Source: an uncultured Gammaproteobacteria bacterium
GTDB lineage: Bacteria > Patescibacteriota > Patescibacteriia > Magasanikbacterales > UBA922
DNA length: 64,000 nt
Reading direction: 5' to 3'
Assembly: GCA_965231005.1 (NCBI GenBank)
Contig: OZ246405.1
Coordinates: 231,204 to 295,203 of the forward strand
The position numbers were made by a program, and so were the translations under genes. Below, one piece after another: positions 7,357-49,748 of the stretch (its first letter is position 1; every line of letters starts with the position of its first letter). Below the pieces are notes generated by a model. It was not told the DNA's origin and made no database searches. It saw only the letters and a list, made by a program, of their open reading frames with translations.

Positions 7357-8736
7357 TTAGAATGTTTGTTGAATAGTTATTGCAGCATTTTTGATAATAG
7401 CAATATCACGCTTCAATGGATTTTCCCCATCAGCATAAGACTGTAAGAACTGATCAATCATAAGTTTCATCGCGTCATTTGTTGTATCAATATCGTTTCC
7501 TCTATACCAATTTTCTGCTGTTAATACACCAGTCACAAATGGTCCTAAGATATCGTCCTTTGCCTGATCTGTAATTTGGGATCGAAGTGGTGTAAGACGT
7601 CCTGTTGCCTCGGTATATTCAGCGATTTTTTCTGGTGTAGTAATAAACCGAACAAAATCCCATGCAATATTCTGATTTGCAGATTTTCCTACAACAGATT
7701 CTACCCAATAGTTTGCAACATTTTTTGGTTCTCCAGGGTTCAGCTGTGGCATTGGCAATACACCCAAACTCATCTGTGGTGCACGAGAAGTAATTCTCTC
7801 AGCGTCAAATGCAAATCCAATGTAAAATGCAGAACGACCTGCTGTAAATGATTCAAGTGCGTCTCCTTGTGAAGCATTCCAGCTATATGCTTCTTTTGTA
7901 GGTCGAGCAAAATCAGTATAAAAACGAAGCGCCTCTCGTGTAGGATGTGCTCCTGGATTTTCTTCTATTCCATTTGCAAATGTGACACTCCCTTTGTGTG
8001 TAACAGGAACATTGTTCTGCATCAATAGCAGTGCCATAATATCTGGTGAATTTGTAATATTATTTCCTGTACCTAAGGCTATTCCTGATTGGATAATATT
8101 TCCATTTGCATCAAACCGTGTTGTTGCACGAACGGCTTCTAACAATTCTGCCCATGTTGTTGGAGGAACAGCAATACCTGCACTATCTAATAAATCTTTA
8201 TTGTAATAAACGGCTAATGTATCTACAGAAAGTGGAAGACCCAAAATATTATTTGAAAAAATCACATCTTCTCCAACTGTTTTTACAAAAGCAGAAGAAA
8301 CAATGTTTGGTGTTGGCATTGCATTGACCTCGTTTGTTACAACAACCTCTTTTGCATATTCACCTTTAATTGACACATTTGAAACCTGCACACTTCCAGG
8401 CATTGAAGACAGCCGTGGTGCGTATTTATTGAGCCAACGAACGTGAAGTGAAACAATATCTGGTGGTACATCATCTGCAAGGGAATTTACTAACAATGTA
8501 TCAAACTCATCATACCGAACCTGACGAATATTGATCGTTACATACGGCTTTAACTGTTTATACTGTTCAGCAAATGTCCGCAAAACACTCACATCATTAA
8601 ATACTGTCCAGTATTCAATATTTACTGGTTTGATAGATGCTTGTTGGTCGTCTGAAAGACCTTTACAACCTAAACCTGTTGTTATTAACAACAGAAAGAG
8701 TAAAGGAAATAAAAATATTTTTTTATTCATAATCAT
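7357..8736 (-). CDS. ABC-transporter-type extracellular solute-binding lipoprotein (family 1, sugar-type)
   Basis: 459 aa with a lipobox LITTGLGC. The pattern LAVYYNKDLL...PTTWAELLEAV is typical of SBP_bac_1 substrate-binding proteins. It is embedded in the pilin array with a 3-nt spacing to both neighbours. Confidence 0.7.
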   Translation of the reverse strand: MIMNKKIFLFPLLFLLLITTGLGCKGLSDDQQASIKPVNIEYWTVFNDVSVLRTFAEQYKQLKPYVTINIRQVRYDEFDTLLVNSLADDVPPDIVSLHVRWLNKYAPRLSSMPGSVQVSNVSIKGEYAKEVVVTNEVNAMPTPNIVSSAFVKTVGEDVIFSNNILGLPLSVDTLAVYYNKDLLDSAGIAVPPTTWAELLEAVRATTRFDANGNIIQSGIALGTGNNITNSPDIMALLLMQNNVPVTHKGSVTFANGIEENPGAHPTREALRFYTDFARPTKEAYSWNASQGDALESFTAGRSAFYIGFAFDAERITSRAPQMSLGVLPMPQLNPGEPKNVANYWVESVVGKSANQNIAWDFVRFITTPEKIAEYTEATGRLTPLRSQITDQAKDDILGPFVTGVLTAENWYRGNDIDTTNDAMKLMIDQFLQSYADGENPLKRDIAIIKNAAITIQQTF

Positions 8737-8739
8737 AAT

Positions 8740-10224
8740 TTAGGGTATTTGTGAAACGCACGAACCCACTTTCTCCGTTGTCTTGCCATCACTAGATTTC
8801 TTCTTTTCACAGATATGATCTGAAGCACAGCTAATATCTGTCTGGCATTTTACTCCCTCTTTTCCGTTCGTACACTTATTATCTACAGGATTACAAATAT
8901 TACTTTTACATTCACTTCCCACGCTACAAGATTCCCCATCTTTCTTCTTAGTTGCTTTCTTCTTAGTTCCAATTTTCTCACATGTGCCTGGCTTATCTCC
9001 AGGACCTACGTTTGACTTAGAACATATTAATCCTTTTGCACAACCGCTATTATACAAGCAAACAGTTCCTTCCTTTCCATCTGTACACACTCCTTCTTCA
9101 AGAAGACTCTTAAGACTACATATTCCTGTATCACAGTCTTTTCCAGTACTACATTGTTGTACTTTACCAGATGAATCAACACACTTATTGTTCTTACATT
9201 CACCCGATTCACACTGTGTGGACTTCGTACAAGAACTGCCAATTTTTCTTTTGACTGTGTCAGTACTCGCTTGATTGGTTGCAGCAGGTTCAAACGATTC
9301 AAATGGATCAAAGACTAGGTCAACAATTGCATAACTTGAGAAAATAACAAACATTCCAGCCACTGCCCAGGTAATAACATCTTTTGCTTTGCTAATATCT
9401 TGTTTTGTTGCACCACCACCAACAACTGTTGAACCCATCATGAGAAGAAAACCACCATAAATAAACATGGCAAATGCAATGGTTCCAAGAAGACCCATTG
9501 CTGTTTTAATGATTCTTCCAATGAGTTTTTGTACGGTTGTACCAGGAGTAAATTGGTTTAAATCTTTTAATAACTTTGCCTGATCAGCAGTAAGTAAATC
9601 ACTGTGCTGATACTTCTTTGCATCTTTTTCAATAGCATCAACAGCCTTTTTTACCTCTCCTGCAGCTCCCAAAGCTGCTTTTTTTGCCTTCTCATATGCC
9701 TCAGTTTGGGACTTTTTTAGTTTTTCCAAACCTTCTTTACAAAGTGGATCATGCGATTGAGTTTTTTTTGATGTATAACCAGTACTAGTATATGATGGAC
9801 ATGTCCCTGGATTGTTATCAATCGCACTCTGCAGATTACCCCCCTTGTAATATAAACAACAGACAAAAGCATCCTTAACTGCACAGGTCAGTTCGTGCGT
9901 ATGATCCAAGTATGAAACTGTTTTTTTATAACCTGAGCATTCTTTTTGTTTAACTTCCACAGGAAGATCTGAATTTAAGTACGCCTTGGAAAAGGCATAA
10001 CCTTTCTTTTTGGGAGGACATTCTTTATTAACAGAATCAGAAAAATCAATCAAATCTAAATTTTTGGGTAAATCCTTCCATGCTTGTAAACCTGATACAT
10101 TACATTCTTTTCCTTTAATAGTAAGAATACACTCACACACTGATGCCGCACTAACAGGAGGGACAAAAAACACACCCATCAATAGTATTGAGAGAACTAA
10201 TCCTATTCTGAAGAAATACTTCAT
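8740..10224 (-). CDS. Large T4SS pilin family protein with N- and C-terminal Cys-rich domains (paralog 13)
   Basis: 494 aa with a signal peptide. The central pilin core is FAMFIYGGFLLMMGSTVVGGGATKQDISKAKD plus a TM helix. The C-terminal ~170 aa has the same C-x-S-x2-C-x-SG-x-C modules as paralog 7 (CTKSTQCESGECKNNKC...). Confidence 0.7.
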   Translation of the reverse strand: MKYFFRIGLVLSILLMGVFFVPPVSAASVCECILTIKGKECNVSGLQAWKDLPKNLDLIDFSDSVNKECPPKKKGYAFSKAYLNSDLPVEVKQKECSGYKKTVSYLDHTHELTCAVKDAFVCCLYYKGGNLQSAIDNNPGTCPSYTSTGYTSKKTQSHDPLCKEGLEKLKKSQTEAYEKAKKAALGAAGEVKKAVDAIEKDAKKYQHSDLLTADQAKLLKDLNQFTPGTTVQKLIGRIIKTAMGLLGTIAFAMFIYGGFLLMMGSTVVGGGATKQDISKAKDVITWAVAGMFVIFSSYAIVDLVFDPFESFEPAATNQASTDTVKRKIGSSCTKSTQCESGECKNNKCVDSSGKVQQCSTGKDCDTGICSLKSLLEEGVCTDGKEGTVCLYNSGCAKGLICSKSNVGPGDKPGTCEKIGTKKKATKKKDGESCSVGSECKSNICNPVDNKCTNGKEGVKCQTDISCASDHICEKKKSSDGKTTEKVGSCVSQIP

Positions 10225-11169: not shown

Positions 11170-11628
11170 TTATTCTTTTATTTGACGAATCATAACATCC
11201 ACCAATTGCTCTGCCCTTTGCATAATTTCATCCTTGCTCAGATCTTGTTCTTGTTCACTCAAAATCTTGATCTGTTCGCGGACCAAGTCATGTCTCATAT
11301 TCTCAAGTTCTGTTTGATATGTAGATATTTTCTCTTTTAATATTTCAATTCTTTTTTGATCTTGTTTTACAGAATCTGGGTCATCTGCATCAGCGAGCTG
11401 AAGCTGAGCGCGAAGCTGCTGAAGTGCTTGTTTTACCTGCTGCATATTCAAAAAAATATTCTGCATCTGTTTTTTACTACTTTTAACTTCTTTTACCAAA
11501 AGATCAGCACGCTCAAGTGCGGCTGCGGCCTTTAGCTCTGGATCAACCTCACCCTCTCGTTGTTCTTTTGATTCATGCTGAGGTTCTCGTTCCCGAGTTT
11601 TTCTCAATATTTCCTTTTCTGATTCCAT
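11170..11628 (-). CDS. hypothetical coiled-coil protein
   Basis: 152 aa, charged, predicted coiled coil, with no recognisable motif. Confidence 0.5.
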   Translation of the reverse strand: MESEKEILRKTREREPQHESKEQREGEVDPELKAAAALERADLLVKEVKSSKKQMQNIFLNMQQVKQALQQLRAQLQLADADDPDSVKQDQKRIEILKEKISTYQTELENMRHDLVREQIKILSEQEQDLSKDEIMQRAEQLVDVMIRQIKE

Positions 11629-11753
11629 ACTAAAATGCTTTAAATGCCCTAAAGGCTTTAATAAGTATAGATTATTTTTTAGAAAAACAAAAACAGGACT
11701 TAGAAAATCCTGCTTTTATAGCCTTTAAGGCCTTTAGAGCCTTTACGGCATTT

Positions 11754-13541
11754 TTAGAGGAATCCTCCAGCTTGTAATTCCCACAACTTCTTATACGTTC
11801 CTTTCTTTTTCTTCAAGAGCTCTTTGTGCGATCCATCTTCAATAATCTTTCCATCTTCCATAACAATAATCCGATCCATCTTCATAATTGTTGAAAGTCT
11901 ATGAGCAATAACAATCACAGTCTTTCCTTTCATAAGTTTATCTAGAGCATCTTGGATAAACCCTTCAGATTCAGAATCAAGGCTTGACGTTGCCTCGTCT
12001 AAAATGAGGATTGGAGCATTTTTTAGCATTGCACGAGCGATCGAAACACGCTGACGTTCACCACCAGAAAGCTTTACCCCACGCTCTCCAACATAGGTAT
12101 CATATCCATCTGGAAAACTTGAAATAAACTCATGACAATGGGCTGCCTTTGCAGCAGCAATAACTTCTTCATCTGTTGCATCAGGATTTCCATAACGAAT
12201 GTTTTCCATAAGTGTTCGATGAAACAAAATTGCATCTTGCGGAACATAACTAAGTTGTGAGCGTAAGCTTTCAAGTGTGACTTGAGAAATCCGCTGACCA
12301 TCAATAAACACTTTTCCTCTTGTTACATCGTGGATACGAAGGAGCAATTTAACAATGGTAGATTTTCCAGCACCTGAATGACCAACAAATGCGAGTCTAC
12401 TTCCTGCACTGATCTTCAGACTAAAATCTGAAATAACCTGACGCGTTTTGTTGTAGCGAAAATCAACATGATCAAATTCAATTTTTCCTTTTTTAATAAC
12501 GAGTGGTTTTGCTCTTCGTGAATCAACAATTTCATGTGGTGTATCAAAAATCTCAGCCATTTCTTCTGCATCTGCAATGCGTTCATAATAATGTCGAATC
12601 ATTTTTCCAACATCCCACAACTGATGAAAAATGGTAAGCAAGTATGCCTGCAAAAGCACAAAGTCACCAACAGTAATAATACCCTTTGTCCAAAGATCAA
12701 TTGCAATGTAGAAAATTCCAAACTCAAGAAAAATCATGAGTAAAATCTGTACTGCTTCAAATGCCGTAGATAAATCCCAAGTAAATTTTCTGAGTTTTCT
12801 CAATGTTTCGGTAACATCTGCAAAACTCTTTTTTTCTCGTTCGTATCCTGTAAACAATTTCACATTTGAGTGATTTGTAATTGTATCTGCAAGCACTCCC
12901 GTCACTTTACTGTCCAGCCGGCTCCGCTCAAAATCATATTTTAATTTGTATCTGCTAAATGCATAGTTCAATAAAAATATAATAATGACCCAACCAAAAA
13001 TGCTGACGCTAAAAATAGGATGTTCAAAAAATAAGACAACAATAATTGCAGCAATTGATGTAAGCATCGGAACAAGTTCCCATGTAATAATGTCTGCAAT
13101 CCCTTCGAATGATCTGTAAAATCTATTTACCCGTTTTACAAGCGAACCAACAAAATGATTTTGGAAAAATGAAAAAGAGTGTTTGTGCAAATACCCAAAA
13201 CAAGTGTTTGCAAGTTCTGTCATAAGTGTTGTCTGATAATAGCTGTTAACAAATCCTGAAATACGCCAAAATAACCAGCCTGCAAGATACACCATGAGGA
13301 TGGTGACAATAACTGAAAGTAATTCTGCTGGAACATTTCCAACAGCAACTGTGCCAGTTACAATATTAAAAAATTTCTTGTAGAGAATTGGCCCCACCTG
13401 ATTAAGAAGTGATGCAATAATAACTGAAACAATCAAAACAAAGCCCGCTATGTTATGCTGACGCATGTGTTGCCAATAAATTTTGTATGTAAGCTTTGTA
13501 AGTCGTTTCATAAAATGAGAAAGAGGCATATGATGCCCCAA
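11754..13541 (-). CDS. ABC transporter ATP-binding/permease fusion (exporter, MsbA-like)
   Basis: 595 aa with six N-terminal TM helices. It has the ABC signature LSGGERQRVSIARAML and the Walker B ILILDEATSSLD. An alternative start is ATG 13511. Confidence 0.85.
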   Translation of the reverse strand: MGHHMPLSHFMKRLTKLTYKIYWQHMRQHNIAGFVLIVSVIIASLLNQVGPILYKKFFNIVTGTVAVGNVPAELLSVIVTILMVYLAGWLFWRISGFVNSYYQTTLMTELANTCFGYLHKHSFSFFQNHFVGSLVKRVNRFYRSFEGIADIITWELVPMLTSIAAIIVVLFFEHPIFSVSIFGWVIIIFLLNYAFSRYKLKYDFERSRLDSKVTGVLADTITNHSNVKLFTGYEREKKSFADVTETLRKLRKFTWDLSTAFEAVQILLMIFLEFGIFYIAIDLWTKGIITVGDFVLLQAYLLTIFHQLWDVGKMIRHYYERIADAEEMAEIFDTPHEIVDSRRAKPLVIKKGKIEFDHVDFRYNKTRQVISDFSLKISAGSRLAFVGHSGAGKSTIVKLLLRIHDVTRGKVFIDGQRISQVTLESLRSQLSYVPQDAILFHRTLMENIRYGNPDATDEEVIAAAKAAHCHEFISSFPDGYDTYVGERGVKLSGGERQRVSIARAMLKNAPILILDEATSSLDSESEGFIQDALDKLMKGKTVIVIAHRLSTIMKMDRIIVMEDGKIIEDGSHKELLKKKKGTYKKLWELQAGGFL

Positions 13542-16205: not shown

Positions 16206-17714
16206 ATGCAAAACCCCAGTACTGTGACTGACTGCCCGAACGTGATTGATGGCAAAAAAATCAGAGGATCCTCTGATCGCGGAGTCACCCAGACCAACCC
16301 AGCTGACACTCGCATCAATGTGAGCCAGCGCTGGGACAGCACTCGTGAAGATGCGTTCGATGCTGTTGCAACAGCCGAAGGAGCTTTCCCTTTCTGGGCC
16401 GCAACTCCTGCACCTGCCCGCGCCGAGATCATTCGAAGAGCTACAGAACTGATGGCCGGAAAACTGCACGAGCTGTCCATGGCCATGGTCGCGGAAATCG
16501 GCAAGACGCGTGTAGGTGCGCGAAACGAAGTCAAGAAGACCATCAAGATCGGCAACTTCATGGCCGGACTCGGCAGTCAGCCTTCTGGCTACGTGGTCGA
16601 GCCGTGGCAGCCTGGCGTGAGCATGTACACGCGTCGCGTGCCGCTCGGCGTGGTCTGCCTGATCACTCCGTTCAACTTCCCGCTCGCTGTTTCCTGGTGG
16701 AAGATCGCCCCTGCCATCATCGCTGGCAACACAGTCGTGTGGAAGCCTTCGCCGTTCGCCCCGATCACATCGTGCATGATCATGGATCTGCTGACTGAGG
16801 CTGGCCTGCCGCCTGGTGTTGTCAACCTGGTTCACGGCGGTCCGGCTGTGGGAGAGGCCTTTGTCAAAAACCCGGCTGTGGAGGCAGTGTCGTTCACTGG
16901 TTCGACCAAGATCGGTCGCCAAATCGCTGTTGATGCGATCATGCGCGGGCTTGACCCGGGCAAGATCCTGTGCGAGATGGGTGGACAGAACGCTGTGGTC
17001 GTTCGGCCGAGCGCCAACCTCAATGCCGCTGCACAAGCCATTGTGGATGGTGCGTTCAAAGGCGAAGGCCAGCGCTGCACTGCAACCAGCCGTGCGATCA
17101 TCCATTCATCGGTGTACGAACAAATGCTGGGCCTGATCTCTGATAAGACCAGCACGCTGGTCGTTGGTCCTGGGACTGACCCGAAGAGTCAGGTCGGTCC
17201 TCTGGTCTGCAAGCATGCCCGCGATAGCGCGGTCAGCAAGATCGATGATGCTTTCATGAACGGCGGCATGGGAGTGCTCTGCGGTGGCAATAGGCTGACG
17301 GGAGACATTCACGAGCACGGCTGCTTCATGGAGCCAACCATTCTCACCGGCGATCCGACCAATCCCGACCACACCCTGTTTCACGAAGAAGTGTTCGGCC
17401 CTGTATTGGCCGTCTGCAGAGGTGACAACATGGACACCGTGCTGCGTCTCGTGAACAGCACCGACCACCGACACGTGGCTTCGATCTTCACCGGTGAACT
17501 GCGAGAAGCACTCGACTTCGTCGACGGCGCCAACGTGGGCATGGTGCATGTGAACAACTTCACGTTCGGCGGTGATGAGCACGCTGGCTTTGGCGGCCTG
17601 GGTGGAGCGACCAGCTTTGGTCCCAAGGAAATGGGCCCTGACTGCCTCGACTTCTTCACCCGACCCAAGACCGTGGACATCAACTACGGAGACGCACCCG
17701 CACCCGGGCGCTAA
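16206..17714 (+). CDS. NAD(P)-dependent aldehyde dehydrogenase family protein (high-GC islet)
   Basis: 502 aa. It has the ALDH motifs FTGSTKIGRQI and EMGGQNAVVV and the catalytic Cys in GQRCTA. The SD agggag lies 7 nt upstream. Its GC content is far above that of neighbouring genes. Confidence 0.85.
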   Translation: MQNPSTVTDCPNVIDGKKIRGSSDRGVTQTNPADTRINVSQRWDSTREDAFDAVATAEGAFPFWAATPAPARAEIIRRATELMAGKLHELSMAMVAEIGKTRVGARNEVKKTIKIGNFMAGLGSQPSGYVVEPWQPGVSMYTRRVPLGVVCLITPFNFPLAVSWWKIAPAIIAGNTVVWKPSPFAPITSCMIMDLLTEAGLPPGVVNLVHGGPAVGEAFVKNPAVEAVSFTGSTKIGRQIAVDAIMRGLDPGKILCEMGGQNAVVVRPSANLNAAAQAIVDGAFKGEGQRCTATSRAIIHSSVYEQMLGLISDKTSTLVVGPGTDPKSQVGPLVCKHARDSAVSKIDDAFMNGGMGVLCGGNRLTGDIHEHGCFMEPTILTGDPTNPDHTLFHEEVFGPVLAVCRGDNMDTVLRLVNSTDHRHVASIFTGELREALDFVDGANVGMVHVNNFTFGGDEHAGFGGLGGATSFGPKEMGPDCLDFFTRPKTVDINYGDAPAPGR

Positions 17715-24848: not shown

Positions 24849-25106
24849 ATGGGACTTAAAATCGTTGTGAACGACATTCTGCTCAACCAGGAAGCGCAAG
24901 GCACAAGGAAGTGCAAAGGCATGCCCAAGTGTTCCGAGTCGACAACATACGGAATGGTCGCTTCCTTCACTGGCACGGACAATGTTGGACCGTTCGCCGG
25001 CACCAAGGTGACGGAGCATTGTTGCAGCAAAACGACCTGCAAAAACGTGGCTGGACAGAAGGCGGCAGATGCTCTCGGGAGGATCGCGAAAAGCTGTGTG
25101 AAGTAG
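24849..25106 (+). CDS. small Cys-rich protein (85 aa), high-GC islet
   Basis: MGLKIVVNDILLNQEAQGTRKCKGMPKCSES...HCCSKTTCKNV...KSCVK has 7 Cys. A strong SD aagggggt lies 6 nt upstream, and its own hairpin terminator is at 25129-25185. Confidence 0.6.
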   Translation: MGLKIVVNDILLNQEAQGTRKCKGMPKCSESTTYGMVASFTGTDNVGPFAGTKVTEHCCSKTTCKNVAGQKAADALGRIAKSCVK

Positions 25107-25128
25107 TCGACAAGATCATGCTCAAAAA

Positions 25129-25185
25129 AACCTCCTCACTGACGCGTCGCACAGACAAGTCGGTGAGGAGGTTTCTCTATTTTTA
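25129..25185 (+). terminator. Rho-independent terminator
   Basis: aacctcctcac...gtgaggaggtt followed by tctctattttt. Confidence 0.65.
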
Positions 25186-26307: not shown

Positions 26308-26451
26308 ATGAATGCAATACTTTACAGTATGATATCACAAAAGTCAATTTGACATTCAATTATCAGTGTAGTAATCTATGTATAACAATTCAAAAGTATC
26401 AAGAAGGACAGAGGGAAATGGCCCGTTGACGTCCTACCAACCTAGTGCACA

Positions 26452-26560
26452 GTTTGACAACCTCGACTCACTGCGATAAGGTGGTACATCCATCCCAGCA
26501 AGGGAACGATACGCTCTAAAAGAGAAAAAAATCTTCTTGCTGCTTGCAAGTTTTTTTGAT
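26452..26560 (+). ncRNA. candidate small RNA transcription unit (promoter to terminator, no ORF)
   Basis: TTGACA-N17-TAAGGT at 26452-26480 is followed by about 80 nt with no ATG-initiated ORF. This is followed by the hairpin cttgctgcttgcaag and a T7 run at 26536-26558. Confidence 0.3.
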
Positions 26561-26642: not shown

Positions 26643-27965
26643 ATGCCACATGTTTTCCTTGGAAATTTTGACCAATTCTTCGATGGTCCGCCAACTCGAA
26701 AAGACGCTCACAAGATCTTTCGTCTTGGAGACAGAATCACGCACAATACTGTCGAAGTAGCAGGGTTTGACCCTGACTCAGTCGGCATTCTTCCTTCGCA
26801 GCCAAGCCGAGAGTACCTCAGCTACCTCCAGCACCAGCTCTACCGCTGTGGGAGCAGCCTGCCAAGATTTGTCGCACCAACCACTGTTGATCCAAATCGA
26901 CTGTGTCTGGCAAAGGCGCTTCTTGAAGACAAAGCACTCATGAGGGAGCTGAAGAGGAAAAAAGGCTGGGTCGTTCATGGCCTGATTTCTTCTCCTGACC
27001 TGACAGAAGTCGCAGAAGCCCTCGGCGGAACGGTTGCACCGATGACAGACCGTGCTATGCGAGCAGGAATCGCCATGCGCATCCGCAGCAAGGGCTGGTT
27101 CAAGGCAATCTGCAGTCGAAAGGACATCAACATCAGGACTCCAGAAGGCGTGTGTGTTGATTCGATTGGAAACGCTGCACATGTTTGCCTTAATCGGCTT
27201 GAGCGTGACATCGATCTGATGCTCAGAATCGACATCTCTGCTGGTGGCCTGGGCAACCTCGAGTTTCTTCGAAGTCTCTTCGATGGCGAGCTCTCATTCA
27301 GAACGGTTCTCGCAACGCTTCAGCACAAAAGCCCAGAGTCTTGGGCTGGCAAGCTCATTCATGTCGAAACCAATCACGAGACTGTTCACGACCTGGCAAG
27401 CGTCTACTACGTCGATGACGAAGGACCCAAATTCCAGTGCCTGGTCGACCGAAAGGTCAAAAAGGGTGAGTCTGGAGGAGCAATCTGGCCCTCGACCTGC
27501 CCTGAGCCGCAAGCACAGGAAATCCGACAGGCGTCTGATCGGTTCATGCAACTTCTCTGGAACATTGGATACCGTGGCTGGGCAGACATTGACTGGGCGA
27601 TTCTCAAAGATGGAAGCATCATGGCCTTTGAGTGCAATGCGCGCTGGCTGGCCACGAACGCTCTCCTGTCCATGCTGAATCGACACGAACTCAATATGAG
27701 CCAGCTTGCTGGGGAAAGCATCGACTACCTGAAACTGCCGCACCATGTTGACCAAGCACAATTTTCTGCCTTCATGCTGCGAGGAAACCAACCTACAAAC
27801 AGGCGAATGTGGACTCAGGCAGAAATCATGATTCCAGCTCAGAACGGTTCAGCGTCTCTGGTCATTCTTGGCCAGGATGCAGACAGCATCGATCTGAGAA
27901 AGCGACAGATCTACTCATGGTGTAGGGAAGGCTCAAGCCCAAAAAAGCCGCGTGCAGCACTCTAG
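26643..27965 (+). CDS. ATP-grasp-like ligase family protein A (high-GC islet)
   Basis: 440 aa. The C-terminal IGYRGWADIDWAILKDGSIMAFECNARW carries the ATP-grasp E-x-N-x-R metal-binding motif. The SD aagggggt lies 6 nt upstream. It is a paralog of the 35514..36854 gene. Confidence 0.6.
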   Translation: MPHVFLGNFDQFFDGPPTRKDAHKIFRLGDRITHNTVEVAGFDPDSVGILPSQPSREYLSYLQHQLYRCGSSLPRFVAPTTVDPNRLCLAKALLEDKALMRELKRKKGWVVHGLISSPDLTEVAEALGGTVAPMTDRAMRAGIAMRIRSKGWFKAICSRKDINIRTPEGVCVDSIGNAAHVCLNRLERDIDLMLRIDISAGGLGNLEFLRSLFDGELSFRTVLATLQHKSPESWAGKLIHVETNHETVHDLASVYYVDDEGPKFQCLVDRKVKKGESGGAIWPSTCPEPQAQEIRQASDRFMQLLWNIGYRGWADIDWAILKDGSIMAFECNARWLATNALLSMLNRHELNMSQLAGESIDYLKLPHHVDQAQFSAFMLRGNQPTNRRMWTQAEIMIPAQNGSASLVILGQDADSIDLRKRQIYSWCREGSSPKKPRAAL

Positions 27966-28733: not shown

Positions 28734-29648
28734 ATGACTATGCCTAAACCAGAACGCTATTCAATCAAGGACTTCAGACGCGACTTCGGTGACGATGACG
28801 CGTGTTTAAAGTACCTATTTGAGACGTATTATGAAGGGTATTCATGTCCTAATTGCGGGCGTTCTGCGAAGTCATTTAAGCGAGTCAGAGGTCGCAAAGA
28901 TTACGCTTGCGCATGTGGCCACCAAATCCGACCATTGGCAGGGACGATCTTTCGGAAAAGCACCACACCACTTAGCGTCTGGTTTTATGCTATTTTCCTG
29001 TTCAGCCACTCGAAACATTCCATTACTGGAGCAGAACTTGCCCGTCAACTCGGAGTAACTGAAAAGTGCGCCTGGAGGATTGGAATGAAGATTCGATCAC
29101 TTATGGCGCAGAAAGACCCCCAGTATGCGGAGCGTACTGATGGAGTCTATGAGCTAGACGAGTGCTATATCGGTGGGGTGGTACGTAGGCGGAAAGGGTA
29201 TTTTAACAAAGACGGCTGGAAGCAACATGAAGACAAAAAAACCCCAGTATTTGGGATTTTGAAACGGGGTGGAGCAGTCTTTGCAAAGGTTGTTTCCGAT
29301 ACACAGCGACTGACACTTTCAAAGTATATCTTTAGGATGATTAAGGCTGGATCAGAAGTGAATACCGATGAGGCGTCAGTATATAGTGATCTAGGAAATC
29401 GGTATGTACACCGGACGGTTAATCACACAAAGAAAGAGTTTGTGTATAAGACGTGCTATACCAATTCACTAGAGAACTTCTGGCGATCTGTTAAGGATTG
29501 CTATCGTGTTCACAGGTACATTTCTCGCAAACACCTTCAGGCGTATGTTGATTACTGCGTGTTTCTTTACAATCACAGGAATGATCGTGTTCCGATCTTT
29601 CTGACCCTTCTTGGTCGTGCCTGCCAATCGCCTTATTTAAAAGACTAA
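28734..29648 (+). CDS. IS1595-family transposase (copy 1)
   Basis: 304 aa with an N-terminal zinc ribbon (CPNCG...CACGH) and an IS1595-type DDE catalytic region. The conserved C-terminus is ENFWRSVKD...YNHRN. Its GC content is intermediate. Confidence 0.8.
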   Translation: MTMPKPERYSIKDFRRDFGDDDACLKYLFETYYEGYSCPNCGRSAKSFKRVRGRKDYACACGHQIRPLAGTIFRKSTTPLSVWFYAIFLFSHSKHSITGAELARQLGVTEKCAWRIGMKIRSLMAQKDPQYAERTDGVYELDECYIGGVVRRRKGYFNKDGWKQHEDKKTPVFGILKRGGAVFAKVVSDTQRLTLSKYIFRMIKAGSEVNTDEASVYSDLGNRYVHRTVNHTKKEFVYKTCYTNSLENFWRSVKDCYRVHRYISRKHLQAYVDYCVFLYNHRNDRVPIFLTLLGRACQSPYLKD

Positions 29649-35056: not shown

Positions 35057-35464
35057 ATGAGTGACAAGCTACCAAACTTTTTTGAAAACAGAAATGAACC
35101 ATGGCGCTTTGAAGATGTGTTAGATTTTATACGCACACATTTTGATGTAAAAGATAATGTTTCATATCGTGTTGGTGAAAAACAAAATAGTGCAGATGAA
35201 AACCAACGAGCACTTATTGTTTTGGCATATGCACAACTCATGAACTATACATTCAATCAAGTAAAAGCATTGTTTGCTGAACATGATCATTTTGCAATTG
35301 CAATGCCTGAAACAAGACAAGGAAGAAATATTTTGGAAGTTAATAATATTTATTCAAAACTTCTTAAAGAGGGATTGGATTACAATGTAAAAATAAATGA
35401 CGTACCCGAGTATTTTGAAATTCCAAATACTGTTTTAACAAAAAAAAGCGCGCGCCTTGCATAG
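35057..35464 (+). CDS. HopJ-type-III-effector-family (PF08888-like) protein
   Basis: 135 aa; FEDVLDFIRTHFDV...VGEKQNSADENQRALIVLAYAQL follows the HopJ-family pattern F-x5-I-x3-Y/F-D...GE-x2-N-x-A-x-EN...AYAQL. Confidence 0.45.
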   Translation: MSDKLPNFFENRNEPWRFEDVLDFIRTHFDVKDNVSYRVGEKQNSADENQRALIVLAYAQLMNYTFNQVKALFAEHDHFAIAMPETRQGRNILEVNNIYSKLLKEGLDYNVKINDVPEYFEIPNTVLTKKSARLA

Positions 35465-35513
35465 AGCAGAGACGCGCTTAGAAAACCCCCTTGTTCGTTC
35501 TTGTTCCGTTTTG

Positions 35514-36854
35514 TTATCCACCGACTCGATGTCGCACTTCCTGAAGCAGCTCTTGCACTCGCAGTGCTGCGTTTTTGTTTCTACCATGACGAGACATTGC
35601 CACGAGACTGAACTTGCCAGGAAGCAAACCTGTCATCAGCGGCAACACACCTTCGTCACCATCTGGAAGTAGATCTTTGATGGTTCGCTGCAGCTCAGCA
35701 AAGTCACTTACAGCACCCGAGGCTGGCCACACATTGCTCATGAGCACTGCCCATGCACCACCATGCGCTGCTTCGAGTTGATTGAGTACTGACTTGGGAT
35801 ACTGCGACGCAGTCATGCGCGGATTTGGATCCACGAACCGCCAGTCAAGCATTTGCCCGTTTCTCATTGCCGTGATTTCGTCGCGAGTCAGGTCAGTGTG
35901 ACTACCGAACTCAGTCTTTTTTCCGCAAATGCCAATGGCATCGCAGCCAATCTGACCTCGATAACCCATGAGCCACCAGATTTGTGCAATCCTTCGTCCA
36001 CGACGTTGCAAACACGCAAGATCGAACTTGCTGAAACCTGGGAGTGCATCTGCACTTGCAACCAAGTTGCCAGCATGATCTTTTCCGTGAAGAATGATCT
36101 GCGCGTTGACAAACACGTCCTCAACACCGTCGTCTGTCAAAGACATTTGCACTGCAGCATCGACAATGTCTGCGTATCCAGCTTCTGCCAGAATCTCAGT
36201 ACCTTGTCCATTGCAGTGCTCACGACCGTAGCCGTCAATGTCTGCCTGTGTTCTGACAATTGCAGTACCAACACCAGAAGCCCAGGCATCCCGCTTGAAA
36301 ACAGAAAAGTCCGGAGACTTGATAGTGTGGTTCACTCGCATGAGCGTTGCATGTGCTGCATGAAGTTCTGCTGCACTCGAGCAAATGCGAGCAGGAACAA
36401 CAATGTAGTCCATGCCGCAAAGACGAGCCATTCTGTGAAACGCAATCTTCGATTCGATTTGCTGCGTCACCGATGCTTTGGCGCTCCACACGTGCTGAGA
36501 TGAAAGTCCCAGCTCGCACGTCACATCAGCTTCACGCTGACCAACATAGAAGTACTGCAGTCGCAGGTCACCTTGAGACCGAACATGATGTTGAATCGTG
36601 TCTGCATGTCTGCCAGAAGTGACACCGCCGTATACATCCTCAAGCGGTACAACGTGCTCTGCACCAAGGCCGTTTTTCCTCCACAAACGATGCTCGTTTG
36701 GGATCTCTCCAGTGGCAGAAACGAATGCGATTGGCACGTCCATGGAAATGCCGCGGCCGCCGTATGGACCAACATTGAGCCCTGGCAAAAAGCCAAAGGC
36801 ACTTTCTAGGCACCATACGCCGACCAGAGCTGGTCGCTTTCTTTTATGTCCCAT
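35514..36854 (-). CDS. ATP-grasp-like ligase family protein B (high-GC islet)
   Basis: The start is at ATG 36854 (MGHKRKRPALVG...), which has the SD aaggggaaag. The C-terminal LMGYRGQIGCDAIGI block is homologous to protein A (IGYRGWADIDWAIL). The opposite-strand ORF 35853..36503 is an antisense artefact of the high GC content. Confidence 0.55.
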   Translation of the reverse strand: MGHKRKRPALVGVWCLESAFGFLPGLNVGPYGGRGISMDVPIAFVSATGEIPNEHRLWRKNGLGAEHVVPLEDVYGGVTSGRHADTIQHHVRSQGDLRLQYFYVGQREADVTCELGLSSQHVWSAKASVTQQIESKIAFHRMARLCGMDYIVVPARICSSAAELHAAHATLMRVNHTIKSPDFSVFKRDAWASGVGTAIVRTQADIDGYGREHCNGQGTEILAEAGYADIVDAAVQMSLTDDGVEDVFVNAQIILHGKDHAGNLVASADALPGFSKFDLACLQRRGRRIAQIWWLMGYRGQIGCDAIGICGKKTEFGSHTDLTRDEITAMRNGQMLDWRFVDPNPRMTASQYPKSVLNQLEAAHGGAWAVLMSNVWPASGAVSDFAELQRTIKDLLPDGDEGVLPLMTGLLPGKFSLVAMSRHGRNKNAALRVQELLQEVRHRVGG

Positions 36855-37273
36855 TGTTCTTTCCCCTTGTGTTGAACGTGAATGGATAAAAGCTCTTTTT
36901 GTTAATAAGAGCCTTCTAAGATGTACAGCATACACCTGAGTAGGCTCTTATTTTTCTGGATTAGGTTACTACAGAAAATTGATTTGAGCAAGATTTGTAA
37001 TGAACGAAATAAAAAACACCGCTGAGCGGTGATTCTTTTGTATGTCTTATTTACTTAAGCACATGTACAAAAACCACCGCTTCTGGTGAGAAGGAGGAGG
37101 TTTAGGAGAAGATGTGATTTGTGCCTCATATTCATATATTTTTATCCTAGCACGACGTGTTTGATCATGCAAGTAAAACAAAAAAAGTCCAAAAATGGAC
37201 TTCTTTTGTTGGCGCCCAAGTTTATTAGACTCAGGCACCCTCCTTTTTCTTGATTTTCCTTGTACTGTGATGA

Positions 37274-38875
37274 CTACTCTCCGACGGCCATCAGCTGAAC
37301 CAGACCGAAGAGCCAAAGCGCATGATCAGACAGCTGCTGCATGGACGTGAGCTCCTTCTCACTCTCGGGCGCGAAGTAGCCCGTACCGAGATTGACAAGG
37401 CCGATCTTGTTGTCCAGGAATGCGTCAATACCAGTGCCACCGCGAATCGGTGTGACGTTCACCGGGAGTCCGAGCTGCTCTGCAGCCTCGACTGCGAATT
37501 CACGGAGGTGAAGGAAGGACTGCATCTCAGGCCCCATGTTGCGGTACTGAGGAGTCAGCTCCACGAAGACCAGCTCATGATCGTGCTGGAGCTGGAGCAA
37601 GTCCAGTCCGCGTCGATTGAACCCCTCTTCAGTGAAGTCACGAATGCGGAAGAAAAGATGCCAGCCATTTCCATCTTCGTCCGGCTTGATATCGAACGGA
37701 TTGGTGTAGCCCTGGAATCCCTCGCTGTCTTCCGGAAGAACCGGCTGAGTGACCCGATCATGGCAGAGGAAATCCCAGACAAGACCGAACAACCGATCCA
37801 GACTCTTGTCGAGCGAGTCCACAACTGGAGAATCCTTGTGCAGTTCGAGCCGAGCACCGAGAGGTTGGTGCATCTCGAGCTGACCGCGAATCAGGTCGAG
37901 CGCTCGATCCAACGCATCGTCAGCAGCCGCTTCATCATCATCTTCGAAGCAGTAGGAGAGGCAGACATCTGCAACACACTCGTTGAGCGGATCACCCTTG
38001 AAATCACTGACCCACACACGACCCATCTGCTCGTGGACACGAGCGAGCACAGTGATTGGATTCAGACCGCGCTCAGCCTTGGCAGTTGCACCGTGCGTCT
38101 TCACACCGTGGATGCGAATACGCTGGGTCATGATTTCCTCGCTGCCGTTGTTGTCACCACCCCAGGTCTTCATGTGCACATCACCGAGCGCAGCATTGAA
38201 GTTCTCCAGACTGATCTCAAACGAGGCAATGCCGTCGACTGTGTACCCATGCGTCACACCCTGTGCTGCCAGCCACTTGGCCAGGTCAGCAACAGCTTCG
38301 TCTCGACCGATTTCCTCGTCAGCCCGACCAATGATGTAGATCGGCGGGTGAGGGGCGTCTTTGTTCGTGTGAAGCAGGTGTGCCAGGGTCATGAGATGGG
38401 TCAGGCCGAGTTTGTCGTCCAAACCGAACGGCGCCTTTCCAGGACCGTGCAGCACATCCTGCCCCACAAAGCCGTCGAGTTCTGGGTAGAGGTCGAGCGA
38501 GACGTTGATGTTGCTGTTCAGCGAGTAGTTGAGAGGCGAACCATTCCACTTGGGAACCTTGGTCAAAACCTCAACAGCTTCAGTGCCCTTTGCTGTATCC
38601 ATGTGAATCATGAACGCAACAGGCGGAGCATCAGAGTGGCGGGCACGCTTGTAAGCGATCATATTGCCTGTCTTCTCGCGCACTTTTGCTTGAAATCCTC
38701 GAGCGCGGAAGAAGACCTCGAGCATCCTGGCGAGCTCGAGCTGGCCTGTGGTGCTCGGAATCGTCTGACTGTGTTCGTCACTCTGAGAATCGATTCTCAG
38801 TGCCTTCATCAGGTGCATGTGTGCGACCATCGCGATAGCCGAAGCAGACTGAGTCGGAAGAATAAACTGGCTCAT
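37274..38875 (-). CDS. M20-family metallopeptidase, peptidase T (PepT)-like, with insertions (high-GC islet)
   Basis: The start is at ATG 38875 (MSQFILPTQ), which has the SD aggagg. The M20 metal-ligand motifs are present: AFMIHMDTAKG, GLDDKLGL, IGRADEEIG and IRGGTGIDAF. The opposite-strand 526-aa ORF was rejected. Confidence 0.65.
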   Translation of the reverse strand: MSQFILPTQSASAIAMVAHMHLMKALRIDSQSDEHSQTIPSTTGQLELARMLEVFFRARGFQAKVREKTGNMIAYKRARHSDAPPVAFMIHMDTAKGTEAVEVLTKVPKWNGSPLNYSLNSNINVSLDLYPELDGFVGQDVLHGPGKAPFGLDDKLGLTHLMTLAHLLHTNKDAPHPPIYIIGRADEEIGRDEAVADLAKWLAAQGVTHGYTVDGIASFEISLENFNAALGDVHMKTWGGDNNGSEEIMTQRIRIHGVKTHGATAKAERGLNPITVLARVHEQMGRVWVSDFKGDPLNECVADVCLSYCFEDDDEAAADDALDRALDLIRGQLEMHQPLGARLELHKDSPVVDSLDKSLDRLFGLVWDFLCHDRVTQPVLPEDSEGFQGYTNPFDIKPDEDGNGWHLFFRIRDFTEEGFNRRGLDLLQLQHDHELVFVELTPQYRNMGPEMQSFLHLREFAVEAAEQLGLPVNVTPIRGGTGIDAFLDNKIGLVNLGTGYFAPESEKELTSMQQLSDHALWLFGLVQLMAVGE

Positions 38876-38974
38876 TGTGGACCTCCTGGTCTTGGGTTTT
38901 GAGCGACCCTTGTGAAAATCGAACCGCATCAATAAAACCAGTTTTTTAGCACTTTGTCAAGAAGAAAAATGCGC

Positions 38975-39015
38975 AAAAAGCCATAAATGCCGCAAAGGTC
39001 TTAAAAGCATTTACT
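38975..39015. promoter_or_regulatory. phased GCCATAAATGC / CCTTTA-type repeats upstream of rpsT and the M20 gene
   Basis: aaagccataaatgccgcaaaggtcttaaaagcatttac belongs to the same family as the 16035-16125 array. TTGACA-N15-TATCATATATACT at 39029-39061 is the probable rpsT promoter. Confidence 0.45.
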
Positions 39016-39118
39016 GGGATTCTGCCCTTGACAATTAGGCACTTATCATATATACTCTCCACACGATAAAAAAGGGATGCTCTCGCCCTAATGAACAAGT
39101 AAACCAATTAACGAACCT

Positions 39119-39379
39119 ATGCCTAATTTACAAGCTGCAAAAAAAGCGCTTCGTCAAACAAAAAAACGAGCTCTTGCAAACAAAACAGTAAAAAATGCCT
39201 ATAAAGACGCTGTAAAGACTGCCCAAAAAGGTATTCTTGCTGGAAAGGAAGTTGCAGAAGAACTTCGATTGGCACAAAAAAAACTCGACAAAGCTGCCAA
39301 GAAAGGTGTTATTAAGAAAAATACTGCTGCAAGAAAGCTCTCACGATTGATGAAGAAAGCAAACGCAACAAAAAAATAA
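39119..39379 (+). CDS. rpsT: 30S ribosomal protein S20
   Basis: 86 aa; MPNLQAAKKALRQTKKRALANKTVKNAYKDAVK is the S20 pattern. Confidence 0.9.
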   Translation: MPNLQAAKKALRQTKKRALANKTVKNAYKDAVKTAQKGILAGKEVAEELRLAQKKLDKAAKKGVIKKNTAARKLSRLMKKANATKK

Positions 39380-48905: not shown

Positions 48906-49547
48906 CTACTCGTCGTCAACAGGGGTGTACGGATCGCACCAGTCCAACCTGTGGTTACGCGTGTTTGCGTGCTGCGCCCTGAGCCTGAGGGTCTCGCCAA
49001 ATCCCCGTGCGAATTTGAAGTTGCCCTGGACAGGAATGATCAACCGAAAGCCCTTGAGCAGAAGCGTTTTGGCATTCGCGATCTCTCGGTCACCAGACCG
49101 CCGATCCTTGTCGATCTTGTCGATGGCACGCGCGACGTAGAACCCTGCCTTGGCCGAAGCGTTGACGAGCCTGTCCCGTTGCCTGGTCCTGATGTCGAGC
49201 TTTTCCTTCAGGCGGTCTTTCTCTGCCTCCAGCGGTTCGAACTTACCACGAAGCGTCTGGGTCTCTGCCTGAGCCGCTGCGAGCTTGCCCTGCGTTTCAT
49301 CCAGATCTTGCTTCATCGCAGACCCAAACTTGTGCGCCTCAACAAGAAGCAGTATCAGACCCACAATGACGACCATGAAGAACACAAATGTGATGATGAA
49401 CATACCACCCGTGTACTGAACCTCACCATCTACATCTGAAATCAGCGCCAGGACGACTATTGCTGAAACGGCCAAAAAGCCGAGCACCGCAATAAACCCG
49501 ACAAAAAGGTGGAGAGCCTTCCGCATCTCCATGCCGAACAGTTTCAT
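48906..49547 (-). CDS. hypothetical membrane protein with coiled-coil (high-GC islet)
   Basis: The start is at ATG 49547 (MKLFGMEMRKALHLF), which has the SD agagagg. It has two TM helices, a coiled coil (KQDLDETQGKLAAAQAETQTLRGKFEPLEAEKDRLKEKLD) and a C-terminal domain. A terminator lies at 48808-48835. Confidence 0.55.
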   Translation of the reverse strand: MKLFGMEMRKALHLFVGFIAVLGFLAVSAIVVLALISDVDGEVQYTGGMFIITFVFFMVVIVGLILLLVEAHKFGSAMKQDLDETQGKLAAAQAETQTLRGKFEPLEAEKDRLKEKLDIRTRQRDRLVNASAKAGFYVARAIDKIDKDRRSGDREIANAKTLLLKGFRLIIPVQGNFKFARGFGETLRLRAQHANTRNHRLDWCDPYTPVDDE

Positions 49548-49748
49548 GTTAACCTCTCTTGTGCATTGCACAGAAGTCGCTCCACAAATCTTGACGACCG
49601 GCCTCTTTCGGCCTAAGGCTGTGTTGATCATGCTGGCCTTGTCCAACACAATCAACGACAGGTCCCTCTCCCGTCGTATTTGCTTTGCTACGTTTGCTCC
49701 AATTGAGCATAAAGCACTCTTTGGTAAGAGTGCTTCTGCTTAATTAGA

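Follow-up and report, generated by a model that had tools for sequence, protein, structure and literature searches.

A predicted leucine attenuator on a horizontally acquired ATP-grasp ligase gene next to a PepT-like peptidase gene

The locus described here raises the question of what two adjoining GC-rich genes, one encoding an ATP-grasp-like ligase and the other an M20 metallopeptidase, are doing in a genome that is otherwise poor in guanine and cytosine (GC). It lies in a stretch of 64,000 nucleotides (nt) from an uncultured bacterium (assembly GCA_965231005.1, contig OZ246405.1, positions 231,204 to 295,203), the whole of which we refer to as the window. The ligase gene (ligase B) and the peptidase gene (the PepT-like gene) adjoin on the minus strand, flanked by rpsT and a hopJ-like gene, and a second ATP-grasp ligase gene (ligase A) is located about 8 kb from ligase B (Table 1). 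A preliminary description of this DNA took the ligase and the peptidase for a pair of the kind found in peptide-modification pathways, and the two ligases for diverged copies of one family. Our analysis shows that ligase B and the PepT-like gene are two horizontally acquired, independently transcribed genes, and computational evidence shows ligase B as a gene predicted to be under leader-peptide transcription attenuation by leucine.

The spacer and the leucine attenuator of ligase B

Along the minus strand, the stop codon of the PepT-like gene is followed by a hairpin with a T-run, a promoter-like site, an open reading frame (ORF) of 26 codons, a terminator, an untranslated stretch of 155 nt and the start codon of ligase B. 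The 420-bp spacer carries two terminator hairpins, with the promoter-like site and the leader ORF between them, and the two genes are thus separate transcription units and not an operon. The signals at both ends of the PepT-like gene show it to have a predicted promoter and a predicted terminator of its own, although the terminator scan places the palindromic stem of the latter on the plus strand. The promoter-like site ahead of the leader ORF ends 8 nt before the leader ATG, so that the transcript would be nearly leaderless. For ligase B the start codon is ATG 36854 and not GTG 36935 (identical to database protein P0001; ribosome-binding site (RBS) GGGGAAAG), and the PepT-like gene starts at ATG 38875 and not at TTG 38932 (identical to database protein P0006; RBS AGGAGG).

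The leader ORF contains a run of seven leucine codons and one asparagine codon (37111-37088; CTT CTC CTA AAC CTC CTC CTT CTC), and five of the seven leucine codons are CTC or CTA, which are rare in the host (together 18% of the leucine codons in native genes). The terminator that follows consists of a 5' arm (region 3), a 3' arm (region 4) and a T-run. A further element, region 2, repeats the 3' arm of the terminator and is hence complementary to its 5' arm. Together these elements suggest a switch, in which the near-leaderless ORF with its seven leucine codons would be translated ahead of ligase B. When Leu-tRNA is plentiful, the ribosome would reach the stop codon and cover region 2, the 3:4 terminator would form, and transcription would end 155 nt before ligase B. 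When Leu-tRNA is scarce, the ribosome would stall on the leucine run and region 2 would pair with region 3; this 2:3 pairing would block the terminator, and ligase B would be transcribed.

Two kinds of computation bear on this switch. The longest helix that the leader can form with the 5' arm of the terminator was sought without bias at 15 loci and compared with 1000 shuffles. In the window the helix of region 2 measures 9 nt, a length that none of the 1000 shuffles reached. Helices of 7-11 nt were recovered at all 15 loci and exceed the shuffles at 13 of them (P <= 0.033), and in all 13 significant loci the end of region 2 lies 6-24 nt ahead of the last nucleotide of the stop codon. A terminator hairpin with a T-run is located between leader and gene at every one of the 15 loci. 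When the sequence is folded with a ribosome mask on the leucine run, the minimum-energy fold is the 2:3 antiterminator helix, and when the mask is placed at the stop codon the terminator forms; the switch holds for the window and for homologous loci L001, L002 and L016.

A conserved block upstream of ligase-B homologues, which themselves lie in unrelated genomic contexts, turns out on translation to be a leader ORF. At each of five loci (L001, L002, L016, L008 and L012) the leader is the sole short ORF in six frames with at least six identical residues in eight codons, and this leucine-run ORF is always found just upstream of the ligase gene. Regions 2, 3 and 4 vary in sequence between lineages yet stay complementary. 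Further family members carry leaders with runs of phenylalanine, tyrosine, isoleucine or mixed hydrophobic residues (Table 1), and a terminator together with a region 2 inside the ORF is also present at L006, L011, L004 and L017-L022. The leader-plus-attenuator layout is found in about eleven independent lineages. The attenuator would thus appear to be a trait of the ligase-B family in which the sensed amino acid varies. We found no paper that joins leader peptide, attenuation and Patescibacteria, which is absence of evidence only.

Upstream of ligase B, an Rfam search at E <= 1 across 35300-39200 matched no known RNA family, and the same holds for ligase-B relatives at eight homologue loci, searched at the gathering threshold. 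The leader of ligase B is hence neither a T-box nor a known riboswitch. The classical attenuation architecture is that of the enterobacterial leu, ilv, phe, his and trp leaders, and the Escherichia coli leu leader contains the run LLLLN. The locus shares with these attenuators a short ORF with a run of the regulating codon, mutually exclusive antiterminator and terminator, and a stop codon placed to mask region 2; it differs from them in that the regulated gene is a single ATP-grasp ligase and not a biosynthetic operon, and in that the hosts have small, apparently auxotrophic genomes. The 5' untranslated region (UTR) of ligase B also contains an inverted repeat (36904-36952; 22-nt arms, 86% complementary, 5-nt loop), which is not conserved in sequence among homologues.

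Two ATP-grasp ligases and a PepT-like peptidase

Five close relatives of ligase B were found among 5.8 billion proteins, and an exhaustive HMMER search yielded 38 representatives of the family; an alignment of 37 sequences (A1) was used as profile and for the AlphaFold model. A profile scan of a genome-contig collection, which did not include the window genome, returned two loci, both already known. As a single query, ligase B has no match in Pfam, NCBIfam or PDB. The Pfam model ATP-grasp_3 is matched weakly by 12 of the 37 aligned family members, and PreAtp-grasp (PF18604) weakly by one of the 37 and not by ligase B. Against PDB, the family profile matches PGM1 (3wvq, 2e-16), 8ynd (1e-14), LdmS (7r8p, 7e-10) and BesA (8yi6, 8e-7); classical ATP-grasp carboxylases are matched more weakly, and carbamoyl-phosphate synthetase is among the matches. 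The AlphaFold 2 (AF2) model of ligase B (predicted local distance difference test score (pLDDT) 93.7, predicted template-modelling score (pTM) 0.93) has as its nearest PDB folds in Foldseek 8ynd, BesA 8yi6, LdmS 7r8p/7r8q and PGM1 3wvq, with template-modelling (TM) scores of 0.6-0.7.

Ligase A matches 8ynd directly (1.3e-8) and PreAtp-grasp below threshold (18.1 bits, cut-off 27.5). Its AF2 model is of medium quality (pLDDT 68.8), and its top Foldseek matches are again 8ynd, PGM1, BesA and LdmS, which fill ranks 1-20 for both ligases. Both models show a three-domain ATP-grasp fold, with hundreds of ATP-grasp matches in PDB at probability 1.00, and both proteins are single units of 440-446 amino acids (aa) without an extra domain. 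The preliminary description had placed both ligases in one unusual ATP-grasp clade, and this placement is borne out by the pre-ATP-grasp N-domain and the shared best structural matches; profile and fold comparisons gave no sign of two proteins unrelated to the ATP-grasp fold.

The residues invariant in ligase B are R34, K136, K187, E224, H260, N263, D305, N344 and R346. Its ATP- and Mg-binding set (K136, K187, hinge E224, D305, D342-x-N344 and R346) is invariant or nearly so across 37-38 sequences, and the corresponding ATP-grasp residues of ligase A are K150, D317, E330-x-N332 and R334. In the ligase-B clade the first Mg ligand of the motif is Asp, not Glu. This clade (the window protein and P0002-P0005) also has an insertion of ~20-25 residues, CGKKTEFGSHTDLTRDEITAMRNG, at residues about 311-335, just before the Mg-binding DPN motif. 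The profile and fold matches show ligase B to be an ATP-grasp carboxylate-amine ligase of the PGM1/BesA/LdmS clade. Its family may be one of ATP-grasp ligases not described before. We infer that ligase B would convert a carboxylate into an acyl-phosphate and couple it to an amine, that of an amino acid or of a short peptide. The product is most likely a dipeptide-type compound, and the substrate plausibly includes leucine, which would be built into a small amide conjugate.

Other members of the clade invite comparison by structure. PGM1 (3wvq/3wvr) and the Streptomyces peptide ligase 8ynd are the best full-length matches by profile and by fold, including the pre-ATP-grasp domain, but the identity is no more than 14-17%. 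PGM1 is encoded within an actinomycete antibiotic cluster that includes the gene of a precursor peptide, whereas the window is without biosynthetic neighbours and its small upstream ORF behaves as a regulatory leader. BesA (8yi6) is an L-propargylglycine-L-glutamate ligase whose gamma-glutamyl dipeptide is later hydrolysed (protect-and-release). It belongs to the same clade by fold, and protect-and-release would fit the hydrolase-type neighbours of family members described below, that is, the class-I glutamine amidotransferase (GATase)/peptidase-C26 and M20 genes; the window, however, has no other bes-type genes, and the window clade has no C26/GATase partner.

In a word-indexed search of 5.8 billion proteins, ligase A found only itself. 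Directly upstream of its gene is an S-adenosylmethionine (SAM)-I riboswitch aptamer, matched over its full length (model positions 1-108 of 108) on the same strand, 127 nt before the ATG. The match reaches 50.5 bits, above the gathering score of 44.4 (E = 1.2e-8 for the window, 7.8e-11 locally), and the aptamer is followed by a terminator hairpin. The terminator 5' arm CTTGCTG, as read from the sequence, is complementary to CAGCAAG in the aptamer (26496-26502), a pairing that may be the antiterminator. These signals show ligase A as a gene predicted to be switched by a SAM-I riboswitch. SAM riboswitches are typical of primary sulfur amino-acid metabolism, and the reading of ligase A moves in this direction because the riboswitch is directly upstream of it. 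It departs from RF00162 in its usual setting in that ligase A is an orphan ATP-grasp gene, not a gene of methionine, cysteine or SAM biosynthesis or transport; the sole comparable case of a riboswitch on an ATP-grasp ligase that we found is ldmS.

The short motif match between the two ligases that had first suggested their kinship was recovered by BLASTP, which aligns only LMGYRGQIGCD with IGYRGWADID (E = 0.072) and is marginal on its own. Homology is significant at the profile level, where hhalign relates the ligase-B family to ligase A with a probability of 96.8% (E = 2.7e-10, 273 columns), and the ATP-grasp Lys, Asp, Asn and Arg are invariant across both. The two ligases are nevertheless to be read as distant clade-mates and not as recent copies, because their identity is 13-16%, ligase A is an orphan without a close relative and their regulatory leaders differ; the earlier notion of two diverged copies does not hold in any recent sense. 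A grouping of ligase A with the extra ATP-grasp paralogues of L006 and L012 was also considered and rejected, as its similarity to them (E = 3.6e-8) does not exceed that to the ligase-B family (E = 2.7e-10).

The analogies to cyanophycin, glutathionylspermidine and ribosomally synthesised and post-translationally modified peptide (RiPP) systems found no support. CphA and GspS are absent from the listed PDB matches and from the top 50 folds, and the graspetide ligase PsnB (7dro) is found only at rank 46 for ligase A (TM-score on the query (TMq) 0.32) and outside the top 50 for ligase B. With these readings unsupported, the regulatory signals, a SAM riboswitch and a leucine attenuator, instead suggest a role in primary amino-acid metabolism.

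The closest described system is hmrA/ldmS of Staphylococcaceae, which pairs an M20D Met-X carboxydipeptidase with an ATP-grasp ligase making L-Asp-L-Met; the operon is preceded by an S-box riboswitch in several genera, and LdmS homologues were reported in Firmicutes only (PMC9486568). In common with it the window has an M20 peptidase, a ligase from the same clade and cis-regulation that responds to amino acids, and for both window ligases the best matches by fold and profile include LdmS (7r8p/7r8q). The differences are that hmrA and ldmS are co-transcribed whereas the PepT-like gene and ligase B are not, that the peptidase is M20D in one and PepT-like (M20B-like) in the other, and that the S-box of the window sits on ligase A, which has no peptidase neighbour, while ligase B uses the leucine attenuator. 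Orthologues of LdmS are recognised by the retention of Arg47, Tyr252, Asn255, Arg305, Asn307 and Ser309 together (PMC9486568). In the profile alignment with 7r8p these correspond in ligase B to His260 (Tyr252), Asn263 (Asn255), Arg346 (Arg305), Thr348 (Asn307) and Ser350 (Ser309), with Arg47 outside the alignment. As two of the five alignable specificity residues differ (Tyr252 to His, Asn307 to Thr), ligase B was rejected as an LdmS orthologue.

The neighbour of ligase B had been called a PepT-like M20 peptidase, and PepT models and structures agree. It matches the NCBIfam PepT model (1.3e-52) and the PepT structures 3ife and 1fno, with scores below the cut-offs for PRK05469 (179 bits, cut-off 255) and TIGR01882 (124, cut-off 286). 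Its 2878 homologues (best 40-46% identity) are all about 500-560 aa long, and the named ones come mostly from Myxococcota/Bradymonadia-type bins. The protein aligns end to end (95-96% coverage) with thousands of homologues of ~520 aa and keeps all residues that are invariant in the family, which indicates an intact gene and not the pseudogene that the preliminary description had allowed for. No amino-acid-responsive cis-regulator was found upstream of it, either by Rfam (E <= 1, 35300-39200) or by inspection of the sequence.

The M20 motifs HxD (H91/D93), GLDDK (D153), DEE (E187/E188) and TVDG (D214) are invariant in an alignment of 24 sequences. With PepT (M20B; 1fno, 3ife) the protein shares the catalytic motifs HxD, DDK and DEE and the Asp ligand, and its lid motif THGATAKAE corresponds to VHPGTAKG of PepT. 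The long insertions noticed earlier are real, amounting to ~110 residues in the lid domain relative to PepT (residues about 250-395), but they are a trait of the whole family. In place of PepT GGYNYHGKHEF there is an invariant C-terminal motif, GTGYFAPESEKE (residues about 497-508), and HMMER aligns the invariant Glu of its PESEKE motif with the first His of GGYNYHGKHEF, which we take to be His379, the fifth metal ligand of PepT. Four of the five M20 metal ligands are thus canonical and the C-terminal His position is a Glu; the protein is probably an active di/tripeptidase-type M20 enzyme with an altered metal site. The sub-cut-off scores, the lid insertion and the C-terminal motif set it apart from PepT, as does its membership of a separate, large, Myxococcota-centred family. 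A homologue with 44% identity divergently adjoins a gamma-glutamyltranspeptidase gene at L013 (4140-7599). This neighbourhood is a hint that the substrates of the long PepT-like family may be gamma-glutamyl or glutathione-type peptides.

Foreign composition and spread of the cassette

The two adjacent genes are GC-rich, as first described. Ligase B has a GC content of 0.52 and a GC content at third codon positions (GC3) of 0.47, and the PepT-like gene 0.56 and 0.65, against 0.32-0.37 and 0.21-0.24 in the native flanking genes (RmuC, HopJ-like, rpsT and holA); ligase A has a GC content of 0.53. By composition all three genes are foreign. Overall, the window has 39% GC and represents a low-GC genome interrupted by GC-rich single-gene islands.

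In the window, a search for direct or inverted repeats bordering the GC-rich island gave nothing convincing, and there is no tRNA gene beside the ligase B/PepT-like island. In the closest homologue genomes a tRNA-His gene is located directly upstream of the ligase cassette (L001 2439-2513, L016 1755-1829) and is a possible integration site. The window also encodes an IS1595-family transposase 0.8 kb downstream of ligase A (28734-29648, plus strand), and two copies are found in L003, the 14-kb ENA contig of the same organism (8378-9250 and 11547-12110); these transposases are a possible vehicle for the foreign genes.

Named members of the ligase-B family belong to Patescibacteria (Magasanikbacteria, Nomurabacteria, 'Patescibacteria group'), and one relative, a metagenome-assembled genome labelled Gammaproteobacteria, carries pilin genes typical of the candidate phyla radiation (CPR). 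In the low-GC contigs examined the ligase gene lies 9-20 GC points above its surroundings (Table 1), and in high-GC contigs it is of near-native composition (L011 0.61, L012 0.54, L017-L020 0.60-0.65). The cassette of promoter, leader, attenuator and ligase occurs mainly in Patescibacteria-type genomes. The window genome is probably of this type too, judging by its gene content, its relatives and a contig of 1.23 Mb. The simplest reading is that it has been repeatedly transferred horizontally, from GC-rich into GC-poor genomes of Patescibacteria type.

In high-GC clusters the neighbours of the ligase gene include a class-I GATase/peptidase-C26 gene, an M20 deacylase gene of ArgE/DapE type and additional ATP-grasp paralogues. 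The GATase/C26 gene is directly downstream of a ligase-family gene in four lineages (L011, L012, L017 and L022), ArgE/DapE-type M20 deacylases stand beside ligase-family genes in two (L006 and L011), and extra tandem ATP-grasp paralogues occur in L012, L006 and L017. A few bases upstream of the -35 element (TTTGAC) of the leader promoter, a DnaA-box consensus, TTATCCACA, is present at L001 (2536-2544), L002 (55-63) and L016 (1846-1854); L004 carries ATATCCACA in this place, and the window copy is without the box.

Several other genes of the window were observed along the way. Flanked by native rpsF/ssb and ychF-like genes is a GC-rich single-gene island (16206-17714, plus strand, GC 0.59) for an aldehyde dehydrogenase of 502 aa, with its best match, far under the cut-offs, to 2,5-dioxovalerate/alpha-ketoglutarate-semialdehyde dehydrogenase. 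A GC-rich ORF of 249 aa (48906-49655, minus strand, GC 0.54), which matches no family, encodes a membrane segment and a tail resembling a coiled coil; it, too, is probably of foreign origin. The small Cys-rich ORF at 24849-25106 (plus strand, 85 aa, GC 0.53), which has a G-rich RBS and a strong hairpin with T-run at about 25128-25185, gave no match in Pfam or NCBIfam and only chance-level ones in Rfam, and is probably a real small gene. It had been suspected of a relation to the ligases; no evidence links it to them, and with its own RBS and terminator it looks independent.

Table 1. Features of the window and of homologous loci (L numbers). Region 2/3/4 rows give the three sequences in that order; GC rows compare the ligase gene with its surroundings.
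Feature	Positions	Strand	Details
Ligase B	35514-36854	minus	446 aa; ORF and database start
PepT-like M20 metallopeptidase	37274-38875	minus	533 aa; ORF and database start
Ligase A	26643-27965	plus	440 aa ATP-grasp ligase, sequence orphan
PepT-like upstream region	38876-38960	minus	RBS AGGAGG, TTGACA-type -35 box
PepT-like gene terminator hairpin	37185-37202	minus	AAGTCCAtttttGGACTT then T-run
Leader promoter-like site	37144-37172	minus	TTGCAT, 17 nt, TAGGAT; inferred from sequence, below scan stringency
Leader ORF	37055-37135	minus	MNMRHKSHLLLNLLLLTRSGGFCTCA; 26 codons
Region 2	37073-37081	minus	AGCGGTGGT; antiterminator partner, within last leader codons
Attenuator terminator	37007-37033	minus	scan site 37031-37017; CACCGCtcaGCGGTG + T6 at 37031-37011
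Region 3	37033-37025	minus	ATCACCGCT
Region 4	37022-37017	minus	GCGGTG
Terminator T-run	37016-37007	minus	
Ligase B 5' UTR	36855-37006	minus	from attenuator terminator to ligase B start
SAM-I (S-box) riboswitch aptamer	26393-26515	plus	Rfam RF00162, directly upstream of ligase A
Terminator-like expression platform	26536-26557	plus	CTTGCtgcttGCAAG then T7, 21 nt past aptamer
Leader peptide, L001			MKRSINAQLLLNLLLLEHRVVV
Leader peptide, L002			MKRISHTQLLLNLLLQTHRVVV
Leader peptide, L016			MKRSINAQLLLSLLLQKHRVVV
Leader peptide, L008			MTFINHNLLLNLLLQKAVF
Leader peptide, L012			...VVAGLLLNLDLLP
Leader, L006			MNSIYQSFVFFFGFFFRKRGFDIA; Phe run
Leader, L011			...NSFFLLLVVLIIRP...; Phe/Leu/Val/Ile run
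Leader, L004			...AAYYYNSS...; Tyr run
Leader, L017-L020			...HVILGVLCVSLLSLALILIRSGLSLT; Ile/Leu/Val run
Leader, L021			...PSLLSLVLLRFGLF...; Ile/Leu/Val run
Leader, L022			...IKHIMIGYIK...; Ile run
Regions 2/3/4, window			GCGGTG / CACCGC / GCGGTG
Regions 2/3/4, L001			GGGTGGT / ACCACCC / GGTGGT
Regions 2/3/4, L008			GGCGGTAT / ATACCGCC / GGGCGGT
Regions 2/3/4, L012			GGGTCG / CGACCC / GGGTCG
Ligase GC, L001			0.64 vs 0.45
Ligase GC, L002			0.62 vs 0.42
Ligase GC, L004			0.64 vs 0.46; between uvrC and uvrA
Ligase GC, L022			0.43 vs 0.34
Ligase GC, window			0.52 vs 0.32-0.37 (flanking native genes)
GATase/C26 or M20 neighbour, L011	9472-11381		
GATase/C26 or M20 neighbour, L012	12459-13229		
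GATase/C26 or M20 neighbour, L017	4304-5089		
GATase/C26 or M20 neighbour, L022	4801-5493		
GATase/C26 or M20 neighbour, L006	5143-6237		

Readings of the locus and what they would mean

The reading that we favour, with some confidence, combines a horizontally acquired ligase B under attenuation, a ligase A under a SAM-I riboswitch, a PepT-like gene in a unit of its own and a possible make-and-break cycle. The genes are members of known enzyme kinds, and it is their regulatory wiring that is new. The two switches point to amino-acid economy rather than to antibiotic-like peptide synthesis. With low confidence, and by analogy, ligase and peptidase might form a make-and-break cycle for small amide-linked amino-acid conjugates, which would help a cell auxotrophic for amino acids to capture hydrophobic or sulfur amino acids in short supply, or to buffer them, as has been suggested for HmrA/LdmS in staphylococci. 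A wider version, which we hold only tentatively, extends this to a ligase family of Patescibacteria in which each member would be induced by ribosome stalling for Leu, Phe, Ile/Leu/Val or Tyr; travelling as a mobile cassette, such ligases would take part in a starvation make-and-break cycle with M20/C26 hydrolases and, together with a cousin under a SAM riboswitch, buffer amino acids derived from a host.

The functional coupling of the PepT-like gene and ligase B is the weakest step of the favoured reading, plausible but unproven. The recurrence of M20 and GATase/C26 neighbours in distant relatives counts for a ligase-hydrolase link. Several points count against the favoured reading. The two genes are, as described above, separate transcription units; the five closest ligase-B homologues stand alone, without a peptidase beside them; no ATP-grasp partner is present beside PepT-like homologues in the native contexts L013 and L014; and the PepT-like gene belongs to another M20 subfamily (M20B-like) than the ArgE/DapE-type neighbours found elsewhere. 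The case for attenuation is built from sequence and folding, the ribosome mask used in folding is crude, and L008 and L012 gave no clean switch. The ligase-B family has no member with a known substrate. Finally, inducing a ligase that consumes an amino acid when this amino acid is scarce would be paradoxical, an objection that the authors of the LdmS study raised for their own methionine-consuming ligase, which is induced under methionine limitation (PMC9486568).

A serious alternative, to which we give a little less than an even chance, is that ligase B and the PepT-like gene are unrelated passengers in one permissive gap between the hopJ-like gene and rpsT, so that their adjacency would have no functional meaning, the ligase working by itself as in its closest relatives and the peptidase serving as a general nutritional tripeptidase. 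The terminators between the two units, the difference in GC3 (0.47 and 0.65) and the different sources of their nearest relatives (Patescibacteria and Myxococcota-type bins) are all in line with it, as are the several other GC-rich single-gene islands in the window and the lack of a peptidase beside the closest ligase homologues and of an ATP-grasp neighbour beside the PepT-like ones. It accounts less well for the M20 hydrolases that recur beside distant members of the ligase family (L006 and L011), and an experimentally studied pair of M20 peptidase and ATP-grasp ligase does exist in hmrA/ldmS.

It is improbable, in our view, that the locus is a RiPP-like system of the PGM1 type, in which the small ORF would be a precursor peptide extended at its N-terminus and the peptidase would trim or recycle it. 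PGM1 and 8ynd are the best matches in sequence and fold, and the small ORF is always adjacent to the ligase gene, with a hydrophobic sequence as variable as that of RiPP cores. Conservation, however, concerns the codon run and its placement relative to the RNA helices and does not extend to the peptide sequence; the 3' end of the ORF encodes region 2, whose changes between lineages stay complementary; and the codon runs (Leu, Phe, Ile/Leu/Val) are those of classical attenuators. At the closest homologue loci, moreover, the cassette is without a leader-peptide protease, transporter or immunity gene, and ligase A has a SAM riboswitch.

We also consider it unlikely that the family amidates a carboxylate with ammonia supplied by the GATase, the window clade using free ammonia or a partner encoded in trans. 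A class-I GATase gene directly downstream of family members in four lineages would suit such a reaction, and an ATP-grasp enzyme with a GATase follows the logic of carbamoyl-phosphate synthetase, itself among the profile matches; but these GATase proteins match peptidase C26 (gamma-glutamyl hydrolase type) as well and may therefore be hydrolases, the best structural relatives all join the amine of an amino acid or peptide, and no GATase gene is found near the window ligase. That the GC-rich segment is an assembly chimera or contamination, as its sharp GC steps might suggest, is very unlikely, because the same arrangement with the same junctions recurs over 14 kb in a second, separate ENA assembly (L003) and the 420-bp spacer is host-like (35-37% GC), the steps in GC lie at gene boundaries, the stretches between genes that hold promoter, RBS and terminator are as AT-rich as in the host (about 35-37% GC), and the same single-gene islands are found in four other low-GC contexts (L001/L002/L016, L004, L022).

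Bacteria of the Patescibacteria type are unable to synthesise amino acids, and little is known of the way in which they sense and manage the supply from their hosts (PMC11665869). In the leucine attenuator and the SAM riboswitch the locus provides two candidate sensors that can be tested, each coupled to the gene of an ATP-grasp ligase. LdmS is the one member of the clade that has been studied physiologically, and its role under methionine limitation is unexplained; the codons of the leaders (Leu, Phe, Ile/Leu/Val, Tyr) suggest a substrate hypothesis for each member of the family and may help with the LdmS paradox. The attenuator and the riboswitch are also candidate native parts for the control of expression, a need stated in a recent review (PMC11665869). 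If the attenuation predicted here is true, it would be the first classical leader-peptide attenuation in ultrasmall bacteria auxotrophic for amino acids.

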